A stretch of DNA of 6,981 nt. Origin: a virus (Duplodnaviria > Heunggongvirae > Uroviricota > Caudoviricetes). The position numbers and the translations under genes were made by a program. The stretch's first letter is position 1; each line of letters begins with the position of its first letter. A model generated the notes under the pieces. That model had not been told where the DNA came from. It saw only the letters and a list, made by a program, of their open reading frames with translations, and did not search any database. This document shows, one piece after another, positions 8 to 6,981 of this stretch. The stretch is taken from IMG/VR virus record IMGVR_UViG_2648501669_000014; one strand, 5' to 3'.

Positions 8-352
8 TTGACCACAACAATTAGCCTGATTCGAAACAAGCAATTCGATAAATCTGATGTGAAAATCGAGATGGTTTTCCTTAACCCCAACACGGGCAAG
101 GTTGAAACTACTTACCCTGTTTTCCGTGGGGTAGTCGATTCCATCGGTATTAACATCGAACATGAAGATGATGAGTGTAAAAACGAATCAGAATTTCAGC
201 TTAATAGTATCTGGGAAGTTCTAGATAAAAACGCTCGTAGTCATGCCTCCGATGGTATCCACCGATCCTATGTTGGAAACGAGAACGATCTATTCTTCTC
301 TCGTGCCGGGAAGTGGCAAAGCGAGTCGAAGTGGTTTAGCTCTAAGAAATAA
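8..352 (+). CDS. Hypothetical protein in the tail module (start uncertain: TTG 8, GTG 59 or ATG 71)
   Basis: Open frame ending TAA 350..352. All three + frames have stops within nt 1..24, so the gene starts inside the window. No clear SD before any candidate start. No HxH (JAB) or Cys cluster seen. Sits directly upstream of the K-like gene. Confidence 0.45.
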   Translation: MTTTISLIRNKQFDKSDVKIEMVFLNPNTGKVETTYPVFRGVVDSIGINIEHEDDECKNESEFQLNSIWEVLDKNARSHASDGIHRSYVGNENDLFFSRAGKWQSESKWFSSKK

Positions 353-398: not shown

Positions 399-818
399 AT
401 GCTAAAAACTAGGCTTATCACCGATTACATCAATTCTTTAATAGGTCAGGAGTTCGTTCAAGGCGAGAATGATTGCAATCTCATTGCATGTAAGATCATC
501 GATATTCTCGCTGGTACTGACCTATATAATTCTCTTTATAAAAAATATTCAACTAAAGAAGAAGGCTTGAAAATCTGCAAAGAATTAAGCGGATATTCAA
601 ACATCCTTCAACCAATAAAGAAACATTTCAAATTAGTCACTGATGATTTACAGGACGGCGACTTACTGGTCACAGCCCACAAATTAGGAAACCGTAATTA
701 TTATTCCGTAGTTCCTCATTATTCCGGTTATGGCCTCGTTGAAGAAGATGGTATCTGGATGACCATTCCTGTTTCAGACATTGACTATGAACAAGTTTAT
801 AGATTCGGGGGTGAATAA
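399..818 (+). CDS. Tail assembly protein K-like NlpC/P60 (C40) cysteine peptidase, 139 aa
   Basis: ATG 399 lies 8 nt after GGAGG (386..390). The product has a D-C-N-L-I catalytic-Cys-like motif near the N-terminus and a later GDLLVTAH/VVPHY region consistent with the NlpC/P60 Cys...His...His order. Stop TAA 816..818 overlaps the next ATG (TAATG). Position before the J-like gene matches lambda K. No JAB/MPN motif present. Confidence 0.75.
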   Translation: MLKTRLITDYINSLIGQEFVQGENDCNLIACKIIDILAGTDLYNSLYKKYSTKEEGLKICKELSGYSNILQPIKKHFKLVTDDLQDGDLLVTAHKLGNRNYYSVVPHYSGYGLVEEDGIWMTIPVSDIDYEQVYRFGGE

Positions 819-3800
819 TGGGATTTGAAATATTGGTAGGCGCGGTGATCGCTGGTGCTTCGGCGGGGATGGCGGCAGCCGCAACATTTTCTGTTATGAC
901 CGCAGTCGCTATCGGTATGGCTGCTGGTGCAATGACCTTGATCGCTTCCACTGTAGGCGCACCAAAAACACCTAAAGTACAAAGCCCAGATAATGCGGTG
1001 ACACTAGGAACATCAAACGATCCGAAGACAGTATTACCCGTTCTTTTCGGTGTTACCCGTACTGGTACAAACTGCGTTTACAAAGCAATTTCTAAAAGAG
1101 AAAACAATAAGTTAGTGCAAATCTTCGCTGTAGCAGAGGGTGAAATCGACCACTACAAAGCACTGTTTATCGATAATAAAAATGTTCTTGTTGGTAAGAA
1201 CATGACGATCCGTGATGGCATTCTCGATAAGGGCAACATTAAAGAAGAATACCGGAAAGTGTTGGAGGTTGAGTTCCGCACGGGTAAGAATCCTAACACC
1301 GCTTTGTCACTGGCAAAACAGCATTTAGGCTCAGACTGGACCGATGCTTACAAGGGTAACGGCATTGCAACCATGTGTATTGTGTTACGTCGTGATGACA
1401 AATCTCTTGCTGCTGGTGTTGATATCCTTCAACCAAATAGCCAAGTGGCAGTCGATGTTATGGGCTTAAAGATTCGTAACCTTGAAACCAATGCTATTGA
1501 GGCTAGCACTAACGGCGTGGACCAGATTTTCCACTACCTAACAAATGAAAAATATGGCTTATCCGTACCAATTGAAAACATTAACGTTGATTCATTCCTG
1601 AAAGTACGTAAGCAAGTACGCCAGATGGATTTGCATTCAAACGGTGCATGTGATCCGAACGCCAGCTTTAAAGAGAACTTAACTAGCCTTATGCAGACTT
1701 TCGGCGGGGTGATGTTCGAATCCTTCGGAAGAATTACCCTGAAACTGGATGCTCCTGATATTGTTAAGCATACCTTCAATGAAGACAATATCATGATGGG
1801 TAAGGTATCACTGAAAACAGGTGGCACTAACGGTTATTTCAATACCATTAACGCGATGTATCAGGAACCATCAATTGACTATTCCGAGCAAATGCTACGT
1901 TATCCGGCTGATGCTGAAAACGATGCTACTATTCGTCAAGATGGTCGAATTATCGCTAAAGATATTGAATATCGTTTTGTTAAGTCTAAAGCCCAGATTG
2001 ATAAACTTGCGAGTGTAGAACGAAATAAATCTCGTATCACTCAGGTTATCAGCTTTATGACTACTGACGCATTCACTGCCGAAGTTTGGGACGTTATCAG
2101 CGTAACCTATGATGAATTGAAACTGAATAATTCACTTTGGCGTATTACCGCAATTGATCGTTCTATTGATTCTGGTATTGCTGGGATGATGACTATCACC
2201 GCTACAGAATATAATTCTCAGGTTTATACTGACCTGAACTATGCGGCAACTCCAGACAATAGACCAAGTGGTTTACCGGATTCAATGACAGTACAGAAGC
2301 CTACTAATTTCAGAATTAAGGCAACTGGCGAGACGATTTACGGTAAAAACGTTACTTTGACATGGGATGCACCGGAAGATTTTAACCGCTACGGCTTCCA
2401 GATTGATTACCGTGTAAGCGGATCACCTAACTGGATTAAGTTGGGACAGACTTCACAGCAAATTTTCAGTGTCAATGCACTGGCAAAAGATCGTTCCTAC
2501 GATTATCGAGTTTGTGCTTTCGGTATCATCGCGCGATCCGATTGGGTAGAACTGGTTAACCAGAATCCTACCGTTACCTATGAATTGCCGACTCCGGTTA
2601 TTCGAATCAAAAATCAGGGTAGCACGCCAGGAACTTTCGAAGGTAATGATCTGATTATCGAATGGGAAAACCAGCAACAATTAGATGTGATGATCAACGG
2701 TGAAACTAACAAGTTTAGTGACCTGTTTGAAGCATACATTATCAAGGTGACTAACAAGGCTGGTAAGTCTATTCAGTACCGTACCCGCGATCCTGAATCA
2801 TGGACTTATACGCTTGATATGAACCAGTTTAACGGCCTTTCGCGTCAACTGACGGTAGAAGTATCAGCTAAGGGCTATAACAACTCAGAGAGCGCCCCAG
2901 CGCGTTTAGTGGCTATCAACCCACAACATAAGCCAATGAAAGGTTTTAGTGCGCGTGGTGGCTTTAATACTGCGTTTGTTAGCTGGGCGGATGACGTAGA
3001 ACATGACTATGCAGGGTCAATCATCCAGTATGCAACCGACAACACTTTCTCAGATGCAAGGGCAGTAAGCACGAATAGTGTTAGCCATACTTCCTTTGAT
3101 ATTGCTGACGGTGATTATTATATCCGTGGTGCTCACTACGATATTTTCGGTATGGATGATGCTGTTTGGTCTGAACCGTATTTCATGCAAATGAAATCTA
3201 CCATTAGCTGGGACGATCAGGACAAAGAAGCACTGGAAGACCTGATTGGTTTACAAGATCGCTTAGATGAAACCATCGCTGATGCTATTGCTCAAGCTGG
3301 CGCTAATGCCGATGCTAAAATTGATGCAATGCATAAGCAAATCACTACCGAGACGGGTAAAACTGTTCAAGCCTCAGCCGATACCTTAAAGAGTCTGATT
3401 GCTTCTGGTGATAAGGCAAGTTCAACTAAGATTGATCAGGTTAAAGCTGAACTGAAAGGCGATATCACCAAAGAAGTTAGCGCCTCCGCTACAACCCTGA
3501 AACAAGCTATTGCTACCAGTGAAGCAGCAAGCGCAAGTAAGATTGACCAAGTTCGGGTAGAAATGGATGGCAAGATTGCTGGTGTGAATCAGGAAGCGGA
3601 CGTTAAGATCGATGCTTTGAAGGGAACCATTAACAGCAAATACAATCTAGCAGTTAATGCAGATGGTCGCGTGGCTGGCATTCACATGAGCGCAACTAAC
3701 GATCCGGCACAACCGACTAAAATCATCTTTACGGCTGATAAAATTGCTGTAGCTCCGCAGAACGGGACCGATGTTTGCCCGTTTGGTATCGAAGGTAACA

Positions 3801-4594
3801 AGGTTTATCTCGATAATGCGATGATTCGTAATGCCTCAATCGGATCAGCACAGATTACTGATGCTAGTATCACCACGGCTAAAATTGGCAATGCTGCGAT
3901 CAATTCAGCGAAAATCCAAGACGGCGCGATCACCAACGCCAAGATTGTAAATGGCGCAATTGATAACGCTAAAATCGGTAACTATATCCAGTCTTCCAAC
4001 TGGAACGGATCTACCGGATGGCATATCAATAAGAACGGTAGTGCTACGTTCATGAACGCTACCGTTAAAGGTAATATCACGGCTGATTCCGGTACTCTGA
4101 ACAACGTCACGATTAACTCTAGCTGTGTTATTAAGGGTATGCTTGAAGCTACTCAGGTTAAGGGTGATTTCGTTAAGGTGATTGGTCGTAAGTTCCCACA
4201 CCGTGATGTTAACGTTGATAATGGTTATGGTGGCTATCCGCAAGGTACAGTAACCGTTCGCGTTGAAGATGATCACAAGTTCGATCGTCAAATCGTTATT
4301 CCGGCAATTAGTTTTGGTGGATTGCGAGCGCGTGAAGGGTCGAACAATAATACCTATTACGACACCTGTCGCCTGATTGTTCGTAAGAATGGGTCAGAGT
4401 TGTATAATAGGGCGTATGGCGGTAATACTGGTCTTTACTCAGGTGTTATTGATATGCCAGCGGGTAAAGGTGCTGTGACCTTGACCTTTGAAGTGCAATC
4501 AAGCGCAATCAACAACTGGACGCCTAGCACATGGATCAGTGATTTAACTGTAATGGTAACTAAAAAAGCTACTACGGGTATTACTGTTTCTTAA
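818..4594 (+). CDS. Central tail fibre / host specificity protein, lambda gpJ family (1258 aa), with a gpI-C-terminal-like hydrophobic N-terminal module
   Basis: Uninterrupted 3777-nt ORF with GGGGG SD at 806..810. The C-terminal ~180 aa are colinear with my recollection of the lambda J C-terminus (SGTLNNVTI, DDHKFDRQIVIP, VIDMPAGKGAVTLTF, VMVTKK...GITVS versus lambda SGTLSNVTI, DDHPFDRQIVVLP, IVDMPAGRGNVILTF, VMVIKK...GISVV). Central FN3-like repeats (about 2260..3200). The first ~95 aa are a Gly/Ala-rich hydrophobic stretch ending in VLPVLFG, resembling the lambda gpI C-terminus (VLPVLYG). Confidence 0.93.
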   Translation: MGFEILVGAVIAGASAGMAAAATFSVMTAVAIGMAAGAMTLIASTVGAPKTPKVQSPDNAVTLGTSNDPKTVLPVLFGVTRTGTNCVYKAISKRENNKLVQIFAVAEGEIDHYKALFIDNKNVLVGKNMTIRDGILDKGNIKEEYRKVLEVEFRTGKNPNTALSLAKQHLGSDWTDAYKGNGIATMCIVLRRDDKSLAAGVDILQPNSQVAVDVMGLKIRNLETNAIEASTNGVDQIFHYLTNEKYGLSVPIENINVDSFLKVRKQVRQMDLHSNGACDPNASFKENLTSLMQTFGGVMFESFGRITLKLDAPDIVKHTFNEDNIMMGKVSLKTGGTNGYFNTINAMYQEPSIDYSEQMLRYPADAENDATIRQDGRIIAKDIEYRFVKSKAQIDKLASVERNKSRITQVISFMTTDAFTAEVWDVISVTYDELKLNNSLWRITAIDRSIDSGIAGMMTITATEYNSQVYTDLNYAATPDNRPSGLPDSMTVQKPTNFRIKATGETIYGKNVTLTWDAPEDFNRYGFQIDYRVSGSPNWIKLGQTSQQIFSVNALAKDRSYDYRVCAFGIIARSDWVELVNQNPTVTYELPTPVIRIKNQGSTPGTFEGNDLIIEWENQQQLDVMINGETNKFSDLFEAYIIKVTNKAGKSIQYRTRDPESWTYTLDMNQFNGLSRQLTVEVSAKGYNNSESAPARLVAINPQHKPMKGFSARGGFNTAFVSWADDVEHDYAGSIIQYATDNTFSDARAVSTNSVSHTSFDIADGDYYIRGAHYDIFGMDDAVWSEPYFMQMKSTISWDDQDKEALEDLIGLQDRLDETIADAIAQAGANADAKIDAMHKQITTETGKTVQASADTLKSLIASGDKASSTKIDQVKAELKGDITKEVSASATTLKQAIATSEAASASKIDQVRVEMDGKIAGVNQEADVKIDALKGTINSKYNLAVNADGRVAGIHMSATNDPAQPTKIIFTADKIAVAPQNGTDVCPFGIEGNKVYLDNAMIRNASIGSAQITDASITTAKIGNAAINSAKIQDGAITNAKIVNGAIDNAKIGNYIQSSNWNGSTGWHINKNGSATFMNATVKGNITADSGTLNNVTINSSCVIKGMLEATQVKGDFVKVIGRKFPHRDVNVDNGYGGYPQGTVTVRVEDDHKFDRQIVIPAISFGGLRAREGSNNNTYYDTCRLIVRKNGSELYNRAYGGNTGLYSGVIDMPAGKGAVTLTFEVQSSAINNWTPSTWISDLTVMVTKKATTGITVS
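3301..3625 (+). repeat. Imperfect periodic repeats (about 111-114 nt, 37-38 aa) encoding a KID-x-[VA] motif-bearing, Ala/Ser/Thr/Lys-rich, probably helical segment of the J-like protein
   Basis: AKIDAM (about 3313), TKIDQV (about 3428), SKIDQV (about 3539) and VKIDAL (about 3604) recur with similar flanking ...SA.TLK..IA.S context. The DNA pair actaagattgatcaggtt / agtaagattgaccaagtt is visible directly. Confidence 0.6.
3818..3982 (+). repeat. In-frame tandem 30-nt repeats (5-6 copies) encoding a 10-aa unit A-K-I-x-[ND]-[AG]-A-I-x-x inside the J-like gene
   Basis: Translation reads ...AMIRNASIGS AQITDASITT AKIGNAAINS AKIQDGAITN AKIVNGAIDN AKIGNY... with codon boundaries at 3818, 3848, 3878, 3908, 3938, 3968. 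Confidence 0.85.
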
Positions 4595-4698: not shown

Positions 4699-4977
4699 AT
4701 GACTGAAATTATATATGGCGGTATCGGTGTTATCGCCTTAATTTGCGGTGGTCTTTGGAGACTTCACCGAAATCAATTAGCAACTGAAAATAGGTTATCT
4801 AAATTGGAATCCAGCGACGCATTGTTAAACCAGAAGTTTGAGACGATGCAGAATAACCATACTCAGATTGCTGAACGTGTTTACCAAATGGAACAAACAC
4901 TACACGGTATAGAGAAGAAAGTGGTTGCGATGGATGCTAAATTTGACCAAGTTCTCGACATACTCAAACAAAAATAA
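4699..4977 (+). CDS. Small membrane-anchored protein, 92 aa: N-terminal TM helix plus C-terminal predicted coiled coil; function unknown
   Basis: ATG 4699 is preceded by GGGGG (4690..4694). Residues 4-20 (IIYGGIGVIALICGGLW) are hydrophobic and followed by RLHR, which by the positive-inside rule puts the C-terminus in the cytoplasm. The remainder is heptad-like and charged (LSKLESSDALLNQKFETMQ...). Confidence 0.7.
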   Translation: MTEIIYGGIGVIALICGGLWRLHRNQLATENRLSKLESSDALLNQKFETMQNNHTQIAERVYQMEQTLHGIEKKVVAMDAKFDQVLDILKQK

Positions 4978-4995: not shown

Positions 4996-5166
4996 ATGAA
5001 GAATAAACTTAAGAAATATTTTGGTTATCTCTTGATTGTCGCCCTCACTTATAACGTAGCTATTAGACCTCTGCTAACGTCCTTTGGGCTTGAACTCCCG
5101 GCTATGACCGTGGATGAACAATTGCTAAGGACACTGGCGGGGGTCTTTTCGTTATTAGGGGGCTAA
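4996..5166 (+). CDS. Small hydrophobic protein, 56 aa (not in the supplied ORF track); function unknown
   Basis: ATG 4996 lies 7 nt after AAAGGGG (4982..4988). My translation is MKNKLKKYFGYLLIVALTYNVAIRPLLTSFGLELPAMTVDEQLLRTLAGVFSLLGG, ending TAA 5164..5166. Basic N-terminus then a hydrophobic helix; no Cys, so not a lipoprotein. Stop is 1 nt before the next ATG. Confidence 0.5.
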   Translation: MKNKLKKYFGYLLIVALTYNVAIRPLLTSFGLELPAMTVDEQLLRTLAGVFSLLGG

Positions 5167-5167
5167 C

Positions 5168-5851
5168 ATGGCAACCAGTACCAATAAACGAAACGCTCTA
5201 AGGACTAAGAAAGCGTTACGGCAATGGTCTGAAAAGGCAACCGATACATTCGAAAGGGCACTAGGGGAAGGGGCGATCTTTGCTTCCAGAGCACTCCAGA
5301 AGAAGATTAACAAGAATGTTGATAGACCTACTCGATGGACTCAACAAGCTGTAGGTAATACCAACTACAAGAACCGATCAGGGACGAGACACCAAATCTT
5401 CATCAAGGGCGCAAGGGATAAGGACAAGAAGATCGGCAGTCAGGATGACTATCTGAAACACTATTTCGATGGTGGCAAAATCAATAAGCTAGTGCCAATC
5501 GCTAACGGTAAGGTCTTAGACGCCCACGGGAACATTAAGGCCATCAAAGGCGGTAAGATGATGCGTAACATCGAAAACGGCAACTTCATCAAGGTAGAAA
5601 ACAAGGAAGGAACTTTTATCATGAAGAAGTACAAGCCTAAGAAATCCCGAACCAAACGCGCTAGGAATGGATCGGCGGTGGCAAAACGTCGCTTAGAGAA
5701 ACGCATCCAGAAACAGAGTAAGCGAATTGTTGCCGTTAAGTCGGATAAAATTTCTACTCGTTATTCGACGCTAGGATCGTGGGAAAGCAACGAGGAAATG
5801 ATGCTTAAGAACATTAATAAGCACATTAAATCGCGCATGAGATACGTTTAA
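5168..5851 (+). CDS. Highly basic Lys/Arg-rich protein, 227 aa; function unknown (candidate nucleic-acid-binding or injected protein)
   Basis: ATG 5168 is preceded by GGGGG (5157..5161). Hand count is about 36 K and 21 R against about 19 D+E, so strongly net positive. No motif I recognise. The antisense ORF 5461..5706 is rejected. Confidence 0.75.
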   Translation: MATSTNKRNALRTKKALRQWSEKATDTFERALGEGAIFASRALQKKINKNVDRPTRWTQQAVGNTNYKNRSGTRHQIFIKGARDKDKKIGSQDDYLKHYFDGGKINKLVPIANGKVLDAHGNIKAIKGGKMMRNIENGNFIKVENKEGTFIMKKYKPKKSRTKRARNGSAVAKRRLEKRIQKQSKRIVAVKSDKISTRYSTLGSWESNEEMMLKNINKHIKSRMRYV

Positions 5852-5889: not shown

Positions 5890-6237
5890 ATGGCTAAAAA
5901 TATTTTCACTGAATTTCCTACTTATCCGGTCGATCAGCTTTCCGGTATTTTTATTAATGGCATTAGTCCAGAATCAATGACTTATGATTTTGAGGCGAAG
6001 AGAGTTAAACATAAACAATATAAAGAATGTATCCGCGATCATGAAAAAGGGACCGTGTTTTGTGTCGCTACATTGGCTAAACGTCCTAAGTATCGTTTTC
6101 GTGTCGGGCAAGAAGTCGATGTAGTTAATCCTTATAGTTTTAACTGTCTGGGTGATGCACGCGCGGTGTGTGTAGGCACAACTAATTACTACATTAAAGG
6201 ACTCAGATTTACCGGGTATATAATGGAATACATCTAA
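5890..6237 (+). CDS. Hypothetical protein, 115 aa; function unknown
   Basis: ATG 5890 with GGGGG SD. Last gene before the second terminator. The overlapping antisense ORF 5974..6318 lacks supporting signals. Confidence 0.65.
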   Translation: MAKNIFTEFPTYPVDQLSGIFINGISPESMTYDFEAKRVKHKQYKECIRDHEKGTVFCVATLAKRPKYRFRVGQEVDVVNPYSFNCLGDARAVCVGTTNYYIKGLRFTGYIMEYI

Positions 6238-6251
6238 CTCTAATAAATACG

Positions 6252-6280
6252 AGCGACCAATTTCGGTCGCTTTTTTATTT
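6252..6280 (+). terminator. Rho-independent terminator after the four-gene cassette
   Basis: agcgacc (6252..6258) pairs with ggtcgct (6265..6271), 7-bp GC-rich stem with a 6-nt loop, followed by TTTTTTATTT (to 6280). It abuts the GGAGG SD (6281..6285) of the next gene. Confidence 0.8.
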
Positions 6281-6289
6281 GGAGGAATC

Positions 6290-6739
6290 ATGGAGATTTT
6301 ATTTGCTGAATATATCAACTACACCGGATTTACAAGAAAAACGCCTCTTGACTATGAACCTATTGCCATTAAACGTTGTGATGAGTTGGGGTACATCTAT
6401 AACGGTTTTGTTGTGCCGTGGAAAGGGCAACATACACCCGTTTCTATAACCTGCAAGAAACATAGCACAACGCGAACAATTGCTTTCAAAACTCTTAAAA
6501 AACAAGGTGCGTGTCTTGAATGCTATAAAGAATCATTAAAACTTCCTAAGAAAAAGAATAGAGATAAGGAAGCTGTATTAGATAAAGCAAGCAATGTGCT
6601 GGAACGCAAAGATATGGTTTTAGTTGGATTGTTAGAAGATTATAAAGGATTAGACACAAAAGTTTCTTATAAGTGCAATTGCTGTGATACTGCATACGAA
6701 ACCATAATCACTAGAATCATAAACGATGATGCTGGGTAG
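6290..6739 (+). CDS. Cys-rich protein with two tandem zinc-ribbon-like modules (at least 149 aa); 3' end interrupted by IS2, likely C-terminally truncated
   Basis: ATG 6290 lies 5 nt after GGAGG. Contains C-x2-H-x16-C-x2-C (CKKH...CLEC) and a second related module (VSITC... / VSYKCNCC...). The terminal TAG (6737..6739) is the first 3 nt of the IS2 left end, so the native C-terminus is missing. Confidence 0.7.
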   Translation: MEILFAEYINYTGFTRKTPLDYEPIAIKRCDELGYIYNGFVVPWKGQHTPVSITCKKHSTTRTIAFKTLKKQGACLECYKESLKLPKKKNRDKEAVLDKASNVLERKDMVLVGLLEDYKGLDTKVSYKCNCCDTAYETIITRIINDDAG

Positions 6740-6981
6740 ACTGGCCCCCTGAATCTCCAGACAACCAGTATCACTTAAATAAGTGATAGTCTTAATACTA
6801 GTTTTTAGACTAGTCATTGGAGAACAGATGATTGATGTCTTAGGGCCGGAGAAACGCAGACGGCGTACCACACAGGAAAAGATCGCAATTGTTCAGCAGA
6901 GCTTTGAACCGGGGATGACGGTCTCCCTCGTTGCCCGGCAACATGGTGTAGCAGCCAGCCAGTTAAGTCGCTGGCCTACAC
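6737..6981 (+). mobile_element. IS2 (IS3 family) insertion sequence, left end; continues beyond the window
   Basis: Sequence from 6737 (TAGACTGGCCCCCTGAATCTCCAGACAACCAGTATCACTTAAATAAGTGATAGTC...) matches my recollection of the IS2 left terminus and leader. It is followed by the insC start. The left terminal inverted repeat is about the first 41 bp (6737..6777). Confidence 0.9.
6828..6981 (+). CDS. insC: IS2 transposase OrfA (InsC), 5' portion; 3' end outside the window
   Basis: Translation [46 protein letters not shown]... matches remembered IS2 InsC. ATG 6828 is preceded by GGAGAA. Confidence 0.9.

Follow-up and report, generated by a model that had tools for sequence, protein, structure and literature searches.

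The window analysed here, a stretch of 6,981 nucleotides from an E. coli prophage, encodes a J-like tail-tip protein whose first residues recall the C-terminal half of lambda gpI. As gpI and gpJ are separate proteins in lambda, the locus raises the question of whether this arrangement records an unusual fusion of two genes or the natural beginning of a tail-tip protein, and whether the likeness to gpI is genuine in the first place.

A single constrained reading frame

The J-like protein (1258 aa) is encoded on the + strand by the ORF at 818-4594. Direct reading of its translation start (806..820, + strand) reveals a Shine-Dalgarno-like run, GGGGGTGA, at 806-813, followed by a TAATG stop/start overlap (816-820) in which the initiating ATG at 818 overlaps the termination codon of the DUF6950 gene lying upstream. 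The RefSeq/PGAP start of the gene is identical in five E. coli genomes, and the ORF is intact in these five independent genomes, with no stop codon between the gpI-like module and the J-like body. Their pN/pS values are 0.04 for codons 1-47, 0.17 for codons 48-97 and 0.08-0.09 for the remainder. The gene is thus a single continuous, selectively constrained ORF that includes the module, in agreement with the original prediction of one polypeptide at the DNA level. That prediction had also considered that a sequencing error might conceal a stop between the two parts; this explanation is ruled out by the uninterrupted frame in the five genomes and in 43 related viral contigs, a close family found with a narrow alignment, in all 43 of which the ORF begins with the module.

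Copies of IS2 are present in the capsid region of the prophage and downstream of its tail genes, and the production of particles by this prophage is therefore uncertain. Among phage records a megablast search matched an IS2 end only, and tblastn yielded one match, DCP80.

Relationship of the N-terminal module to lambda gpI

A Pfam and NCBIfam scan of the N-terminal 120 residues recovered nothing significant. To our knowledge there is no Pfam model for the gpI C-terminal-type region, the Pfam gpI model comprising only the ubiquitin-like domain.

The informative part of the module is residues 48-97 (959..1108, + strand), a plug and β-strand segment that follows the hydrophobic stretch and has the form PK..P+VQSPDN...VLPVLFG.TRTG (in the window protein PKTPKVQSPDN...VLPVLFGVTRTG...). 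Pairwise BLASTP aligned window residues 48-107 with gpI 156-223 (34% identity, E 4e-6), and a phmmer search of the whole PDB with residues 1-121 returned three matches up to E = 10, all of them lambda gpI chains (E ~0.02). Comparison of family against family by hhalign gave a match to gpI with 95.8% probability (E 7.5e-9), and a broad 36-sequence profile gave 96.8% (E 2e-10). When the PDB was searched with the family profile using hmmsearch, gpI and T5 pb3 came joint first, each with E 5.5e-10, profile positions 5-98 matching gpI 106-212 and positions 73-126 matching T5 pb3 262-315. The same search recovered the gpI-like chains of the F2 pyocin and phage T1, a marginal match of positions 15-128 to RcGTA g15 8-143 (E 1.2e-3), and a weak match of positions 97-146 to gpJ 20-76 (E 0.87), the last being backed by an hhalign alignment of window residues 95-140 with gpJ 20-77 (E 8e-5). 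One profile therefore divides cleanly on the two lambda proteins, which places the lambda I/J gene boundary at about window residue 97. As had been predicted, similarity to gpJ begins only past the module, at residue ~95-97.

Lambda gpI (8IYK, 8K35, 8XCG, 9E7M) and the window module share the same succession of elements, namely a Gly/Ala hydrophobic stretch, a P-K/R-x-P-x-x-Q-x-x-D-N motif and then the [IL]P[VI][VL][YF]G-x-x-R-x-G strand typical of the C-terminal part of gpI (TAPI-C). AlphaFold2 models a strand at residues 79-91 with confidence and as continuous with the sheet of the hub domain. Together these comparisons point to residues 48-97 as the equivalent of gpI 156-213 and of the part of T5 pb3 that begins at residue 262, and argue that the J-like protein's N-terminal ~97 residues are homologous with the C-terminal half of gpI in lambda.

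Residues 1-47 (818..958, + strand) form a Gly/Ala-rich hydrophobic segment that is uncharged but for one residue; it was delineated by composition, hydropathy, HMM alignment and its low pN/pS. Alanine makes up 30% and glycine 15% of it, and the maximum of the Kyte-Doolittle 19-residue mean is 1.9; the corresponding region of lambda gpI (99-155) has zero charged residues and a maximum of 1.8. Thus, the ~50-residue Gly/Ala hydrophobic stretch that characterises TAPI-C directly upstream of the plug segment is present. In the AlphaFold2 model the structure of residues 1-53 is not confidently predicted (pLDDT <50), with one helix at 34-45. This segment is a candidate counterpart of helices H1/H2 of gpI and of the RcGTA megatron's iris/penetration domain, with an alignment that is weakly determined because the segment is of low complexity.

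The low complexity of residues 1-47, and the want of any Pfam model or significant match for the N-terminal region, might suggest that the likeness to gpI is a compositional accident, in which a generic hydrophobic N-terminus (a signal peptide or anchor) precedes an unrelated linker. The statistically strong alignments with gpI fall in the non-hydrophobic part, residues 47-98, rather than in the hydrophobic segment, and the PDB-wide matches are limited to gpI-type chains, pb3 and g15, all at the topologically expected positions. The segment is also unlike a Sec or lipoprotein signal, having no positively charged n-region and no lipobox Cys, and being 47 residues long. The hhalign and PDB profile results refute an origin of the resemblance by chance, which we consider to have a negligible probability.

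The hub body and the C-terminal fibre region

Residues 98-520 (1109..2377, + strand) constitute the baseplate-hub body of the gpJ/pb3/megatron type, as delimited by AlphaFold2, Foldseek and hhalign. The AlphaFold2 model of this body has a mean pLDDT of 80, and Foldseek searches with the model of residues 1-520 recovered T5 pb3 (7ZHJ, 7ZQB) as the best structural match (E 6e-29), followed by lambda gpJ (1e-19) and RcGTA g15 (3e-17). The model thus indicates that the J-like protein has a hub-domain fold of the gpJ/pb3/g15 type. PF13550 (Phage-tail_3) scores below threshold in the window protein, reaching 19.8 bits where 23 are required, but exceeds the gathering score in 6 of the 7 long relatives scanned, where it lies downstream of the module.

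The remainder, residues 521-1258 (2378..4594, + strand), combines fibronectin-type repeats, a central fibre and a lambda-type receptor-binding domain, as judged from Pfam, BLASTP and PDB searches. The fn3 matches in this region are weak, while PF09327 is found at residues 931-1028 (E 7e-21) and PF12421 at 1124-1258 (E 7e-34). The C-terminal part aligns by BLASTP with gpJ 872-1131 (E 5e-36) and matches the PDB chain 9wca_J (E 7e-54).

Gene neighborhood

The window opens with the 3' end of a hub gene (8..352, + strand; 217 aa in full) of the RcGTA g13/phiJL001 gp84 type, which corresponds to the tail protein family phrog_2048. The full-length protein, taken from L002, reaches 26.3 bits (cut-off 26) with PF09931, 'Baseplate hub protein, N-terminal attachment domain', and RefSeq labels the gene in sister genomes as DUF2163 or baseplate hub domain. 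This gene supplies the part that gpL supplies in lambda. It is followed, where lambda has K and RcGTA has g14, by the DUF6950 gene (399..818, + strand; 139 aa; PF22262, E 3.3e-12), for whose product no relative was found in the PDB. A gene of ~138 aa directly adjoins the J start in all 43 related contigs. Lambda gpK contains Prok-JAB and NlpC/P60 domains and a faint match to DUF6950 (E 0.067), and this match is the sole link of DUF6950 to NlpC/P60.

In the window no gene lies between the K-position gene and J, and neither the window, nor the prophage as a whole, nor any of the 43 related contigs contains a separate I gene; the original prediction had proposed to look for one in relatives. It had further held that the ubiquitin-like domain of gpI is missing, and indeed PF06805, which is found in lambda gpI (E 1e-28), is absent from all window ORFs scanned and from the J N-terminus at E <= 10. 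The module thus differs from lambda gpI, a stand-alone protein of 223 aa that starts with a PF06805 domain and is encoded beside the JAB and NlpC/P60 protein gpK, in having neither a ubiquitin-like domain, nor a gene of its own, nor a neighboring JAB peptidase, the Pfam scan having detected no JAB domain in the DUF6950 gene or the tail cluster.

The absence of a JAB peptidase bears on whether the single frame might yield two products, with the module being separated by initiation at an internal codon or by proteolysis and acting as a free gpI. An in-frame GTG, codon 100, lies exactly at the I/J boundary, lambda gpI itself is predicted to be processed by removal of its ubiquitin-like domain by the gpK JAB (PMC1779556), and lambda gpH is likewise cleaved (PMC12617516). 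The original prediction had stated that there is no in-frame Met between the two parts; this is correct for codons 40-128, which are devoid of ATG, but Met codons do occur at positions 18, 27, 34 and 39, within the hydrophobic stretch. No Shine-Dalgarno-like sequence was found upstream of any of these Met codons or of the GTG, making internal initiation at codon 100 unlikely, and on reading the sequence no internal start ahead of the J-like body appears credible. Given also that the modelled strand 79-91 runs straight into the hub sheet, and that the equivalent segments of RcGTA and T5 were observed within the same chain (PMC7296036, PMC10038345), we regard a two-product arrangement as very unlikely.

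Phyletic spread of the one-chain layout

Word-indexed searches gave close and often truncated relatives, and with a gpI C-terminal query only enterobacterial gpI proteins; exhaustive HMMER searches were accordingly used for distant homologs. These recovered 486 clusters (at 50% identity) matching the module at E <= 1e-3, including very divergent sequences with ~20% identity to the window protein. Among the best 150 of the 486 clusters there are 92 proteins with a length of 600 aa or more, and in 86 of these the whole module is N-terminal. Module and hub are also contiguous in T5 pb3 (262-315), as they are in g15, the RcGTA megatron (8-143). As early as 2006 Iyer, Burroughs and Aravind drew attention to fusions of TAPI to TAPJ (PMC1779556). 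These carry the I module and J on one polypeptide, as in the window, but are described as containing the whole of TAPI with its ubiquitin-like domain, whereas the window protein has the TAPI-C part alone. Two proteins, P0277 and P0230, resemble such fusions of whole I to J; a gpI-type ubiquitin-like domain was not demonstrated in the N-terminal extension of P0277, where hhalign matched only the plug motif.

These observations bear on a recent, lineage-specific fusion, in which an ancestral, separate I gene like that of lambda was stripped of its ubiquitin-like domain and stop codon and became joined to J. Such an event would fit with the existence of separate I-type proteins matching the same profile in lambda, T1 and the F-type pyocins, with the TAPI::TAPJ fusions and their likely counterparts P0277 and P0230, and with the lambda-J-like C-terminal third, which shows that part of the gene does have lambdoid ancestry. 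However, the contiguous layout spans lineages, from the 486 divergent clusters to T5 pb3 and RcGTA g15, the neighboring genes are of the RcGTA type (a PF09931 hub and a short DUF6950 protein) rather than lambda L and K, and the hub part is nearer in fold to T5 pb3 than to gpJ. A recent fusion is hence improbable. A tip protein that bears the module is what a large group of phages normally have, and the arrangement is ordinary rather than unusual. The idea of a derived and unusual event, implied by the word fusion in the original prediction, is accordingly not supported, the contiguous arrangement being widespread and visible in the structures of T5 pb3, RcGTA and R4C. What survives of that prediction is its core, a gpI C-terminal-like hydrophobic and plug module on a J-like polypeptide. 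It had named as its counter-case a segment that is standard in J proteins of this group and unrelated to gpI; the segment is indeed standard, both in the group and far beyond it, but its kinship with gpI is nonetheless real.

Functional implications

Characterized tail tips offer clues regarding the role of the module. A trimer of gpI 135-223 plugs the lambda tip and augments the β-sheets of gpJ (PMC10721106), while helices H1/H2 of gpI are predicted to be transmembrane and exit the tip upon its opening (PMC11101478, PMC12617516). [quoted passage not shown] RcGTA and the window also have a similar gene order, with a PF09931-type hub gene, a small gene of ~140-150 aa and then the megatron or J. 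The small gene of RcGTA is, however, an annotated NlpC/P60 peptidase as against DUF6950 in the window, the C-terminus in RcGTA and R4C is a fibre-binding domain as against a lambda-J-type central fibre and receptor-binding domain, and the sequence similarity of the g15 module to that of the window is marginal. In T5 pb3 the IPVVYG...AEGEIDGF stretch is contiguous, as in the window protein, and has a plug immediately ahead of it; the pb3 plug refolds and becomes anchored in the membrane (PMC10038345). It differs in that the gpL-equivalent hub domain I is N-terminal, so that the plug is internal (~215-260), and in that this plug is a β-hairpin-forming insertion rather than a long Gly/Ala hydrophobic N-terminus.

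We therefore propose that the window very probably encodes a homolog of the C-terminal half of gpI as the natural N-terminus of a hub/central-fibre protein, with a role in plugging and membrane insertion; its virion location, plug function and membrane insertion are suggested by analogy with the lambda, T5 and RcGTA structures. The module and lambda gpI would then share the same presumed role of lumen plug with membrane-active helices. In the trimeric tip residues ~48-97 would thread through the hub domains as β-strands, forming the plug that shuts the tail channel beneath the C-terminus of the tape measure, and residues 1-47 would be kept in the lumen as two hydrophobic helices. Upon contact of the lambda-type C-terminal receptor-binding domain with its receptor, the hub domains might swing open and free the plug, and the released hydrophobic helices might then insert into the outer membrane or anchor the tip to it. 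The module may be removed by proteolysis after assembly. Tethering of the module to the hub would make the ubiquitin-like domain and a neighboring JAB peptidase unneeded, their joint absence being drawn from the window's family and the literature.

The finding is of modest importance and does not define a new kind of system. By mapping the split lambda I and J onto single-chain hubs it locates the breakpoint at window residue ~97, equivalent to gpI ~212 and gpJ ~20, and it should help in recognizing plug/penetration modules in the unannotated N-termini of many proteins labelled 'host specificity' or 'phage tail tip'. The separate I gene of lambda may equally well be the derived state. One tentative scenario, which we find conceivable but somewhat doubtful, is that the contiguous plug-on-hub form is ancestral and dominant, that a splitting of the hub gene gave rise to the lambda-type gene I, and that the gpI ubiquitin-like domain and the gpK JAB were then co-acquired to provide cleavable handling of a membrane-active peptide that had become free. 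The window can serve as a natural comparison in tests of the long-held prediction that the gpK JAB processes the ubiquitin-like domain of gpI; if the fission scenario is true, its family would be a natural control, with the Ubl/JAB pair being needed only where the plug is untethered.

Homology of the N-terminal module to lambda gpI

The N-terminal module (residues ~1-97) of the J-like tail-tip protein (ORF 818-4594, plus strand, 1258 aa) can be assigned to the gpI-like family. BLASTP aligned residues 48-107 with lambda gpI 156-223 (34% identity, E 4e-6), and residues 1-121, searched with phmmer against the entire PDB, gave three matches up to E = 10, exclusively lambda gpI chains. The segment 48-97 (APKTPKVQSPDN...VLPVLFGVTRTG...) follows an uncharged, Gly/Ala-rich hydrophobic stretch (residues 1-47), to which gpI 99-155 is very close in composition and hydropathy. 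The module is retained in relatives at 39-48% identity, and their VLPIVYGEQRVGS resembles gpI VLPVLYGEMRVGS even more closely. Comparison of the module family profile with the gpI family profile recovered a match at 95.8% probability (E 7.5e-9), and a 36-sequence profile made from distant relatives reached 96.8% (E 2e-10). The original prediction, that the first ~95 residues are related to the C-terminal half of gpI, is right both as an observation and as a claim of homology.

The start ATG overlaps the stop of the upstream DUF6950 gene (TAATG) and is preceded by a GGGGGTGA run. The ORF is uninterrupted in five independent genomes, in keeping with the proposal of a single polypeptide. Contrary to the accompanying statement that no in-frame Met lies between the two parts, Met codons are present at positions 18, 27, 34 and 39, along with a GTG at codon 100; none of these is preceded by a ribosome-binding site. 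Across the five genomes, codons 1-47 and 48-97 have pN/pS values of 0.04 and 0.17, and the remainder of the gene 0.08-0.09. Given the intact ORF and these comparably low values, the segment is both translated and under constraint, and its interpretation as an artefact is ruled out.

The I/J boundary and the fold of the hub

A search of the PDB with the 36-sequence profile recovered lambda gpI (E 5.5e-10; profile 5-98, chain residues 106-212), T5 pb3 (E 5.5e-10; 73-126 on 262-315), the I-type proteins of the F2 pyocin (E 8.4e-6; 9-96 on 103-197) and phage T1 (E 6.8e-4; 8-91 on 96-191), RcGTA g15 (E 1.2e-3; 15-128 on 8-143) and, weakly, lambda gpJ (E 0.87; 97-146 on 20-76). The last match is backed by hhalign, which placed residues 95-140 on gpJ 20-77 (E 8e-5). 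These matches indicate that a single stretch of the J-like protein covers the last part of gpI and then the first part of gpJ, with the lambda I/J gene boundary mapping to about residue 97; recognizable J similarity begins only past the first part, as originally proposed. The gpI-like and gpJ-like parts are likewise contiguous in T5 pb3 and RcGTA g15.

An AlphaFold2 model of residues 1-520 (mean pLDDT 80; residues 1-53 below 50) shows a confident strand (79-91) continuing directly into the hub sheets, and Foldseek ranked T5 pb3 first (E 6e-29), followed by lambda gpJ (1e-19), JBD30, Chi, RcGTA g15 (3e-17) and T1. The protein is a mosaic, with a hub part nearest T5 pb3 by fold and a lambda gpJ receptor-binding domain in its last ~190 residues (within 3608-4594). 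The latter domain has its best match in PDB 9wca_J ('A8 gpJ 713', E 7e-54), ahead of lambda gpJ (E 7e-35), which hints at a porin-type receptor.

Phyletic spread of the contiguous form

A 129-position profile (residues 1-130), run exhaustively with HMMER against 1.84 billion representatives, matched 486 clusters at E <= 1e-3. Among the best 150 of these, 92 proteins have at least 600 aa (median 1026 aa), and in 86 of the 92 the whole module is present at the N-terminus and continues into the hub part, with PF13550 and fn3 domains thereafter in most long examples scanned. As the profile takes in ~30 residues of the J part, these counts show that the contiguous module-on-hub form is widespread and give no frequency of split forms. 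The original prediction had been set against the possibility that the segment is a standard part of J with no relationship to gpI; it is indeed standard in this group, but the relationship to gpI stands. In all 43 related IMG/VR contigs a DUF6950 gene of ~138 aa overlaps the J start or ends within a few bases of it; none of these contigs has a separate gpI-like ORF. The phage record DCP80 has the same gene order (DUF6950, then J-like). This 141 kb record (PQ671644.1) is classed in Straboviridae (T4-like) Gaprivervirus, yet contains a tail module of siphophage type (tape measure, distal tail protein, hub, DUF6950 and J-like); it could be an assembly chimera or wrongly classified.

Genomic context and neighboring genes

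The window occurs at 100% identity in a chromosomal prophage of E. coli HCP5S3_I4, and 56 other complete E. coli genomes match it at 80-99% identity. The tail module comprises, in order, genes for the tail tube, the tape measure, a 186-aa protein (below-threshold match to the B domain of the distal tail protein pb9), a 217-aa hub with a PF09931 (DUF2163) attachment domain, a 139-aa DUF6950 protein and the 1258-aa 'phage tail tip' protein bearing the gpI-like module. No gene I was found in this tail module, and PF06805 was detected in none of the ORFs scanned, which bears out the earlier view that the gpI ubiquitin-like domain is absent.

The gene at the K position (399-818) encodes 139 aa with DUF6950 only and a conserved 'NDC' motif, and lacks a JAB domain. 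Lambda gpK (Prok-JAB plus NlpC/P60) showed a faint DUF6950 match in its N-terminal NlpC/P60 region (E 0.067), suggesting that DUF6950 may be a tail peptidase of a divergent NlpC/P60 type, equivalent to RcGTA g14. In the more distant relatives (IMG/VR contigs L036-L047 and L050; 39-47% identity) an ORF of ~156-162 aa that looks unrelated takes the place of the 217-aa PF09931-type hub gene, ~1 kb before the J start and between the tape-measure and DUF6950 genes; thus, the provider of hub domain I seems to differ within the family.

Downstream of J, where lambda has lom and side-fibre genes, four small ORFs are kept across E. coli carriers: 4699-4977 (92 aa, one hydrophobic helix and a coiled coil), 4996-5166 (56 aa, hydrophobic), 5168-5851 (227 aa, Lys-rich, faint phrog_1924 'minor tail protein' match) and 5890-6237 (115 aa, no match). 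The last 245 bases of the window are an IS2 end, which (6735-6981) truncates a CapR-domain/HNH-endonuclease-like ORF (6290-6739) that is intact, at 345 aa, in E. coli ETEC4090 (from position 6263 of locus L004). Given this insertion, a second IS2 adjoining the capsid gene and IS1 and IS5 copies near the integrase end, the prophage may be defective.

Two metagenomic cluster representatives from the HMMER search, P0277 (518 aa) and P0230 (352 aa), possess an extra N-terminal segment of ~80 residues, beta-grasp-like in appearance, after which come a hydrophobic stretch, a plug motif and an FNIII-A_GpJ domain. Neither Pfam nor hhalign confirmed this segment as ubiquitin-like; the two proteins are probably fusions of whole gpI to gpJ, such as Iyer et al. 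(2006) mentioned.

Functional implications

The above observations identify the module as the usual plug/penetration module at the N-terminus of hub proteins in the RcGTA/T5 style, in this case combined with a central fibre and receptor-binding domain of the lambda type. In the cryo-EM structure of lambda, a trimer of gpI 135-223 in the tip lumen forms a plug beneath the gpH C-terminus and is bound to gpJ through beta-sheet augmentation (PMC10721106). The gpI helices H1 and H2 are predicted to be transmembrane and exit the tip on LamB-triggered opening (PMC11101478, PMC12617516). The RcGTA and R4C megatrons start with an iris/penetration domain that seals the channel and for which penetration of the outer membrane has been proposed (PMC7296036, PMC10276861), and the T5 plug refolds to membrane-anchoring hairpins (PMC10038345). 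By analogy, the module would function as a plug with membrane-inserting helices.

Lambda exemplifies the alternative known arrangement, in which I is a separate gene whose product bears a ubiquitin-like domain, next to a K gene with a JAB domain. Iyer et al. (2006) defined TAPI-C and noted some prophages in which TAPI and TAPJ are fused; in their prediction, TAPI loses its ubiquitin-like domain through cleavage by the JAB domain of TAPK (PMC1779556). Both domains are absent from the present family, and their joint absence is consistent with this prediction. The finding is of use mainly for annotation and as a natural comparison for what the ubiquitin-like domain of gpI and the JAB domain of gpK do.
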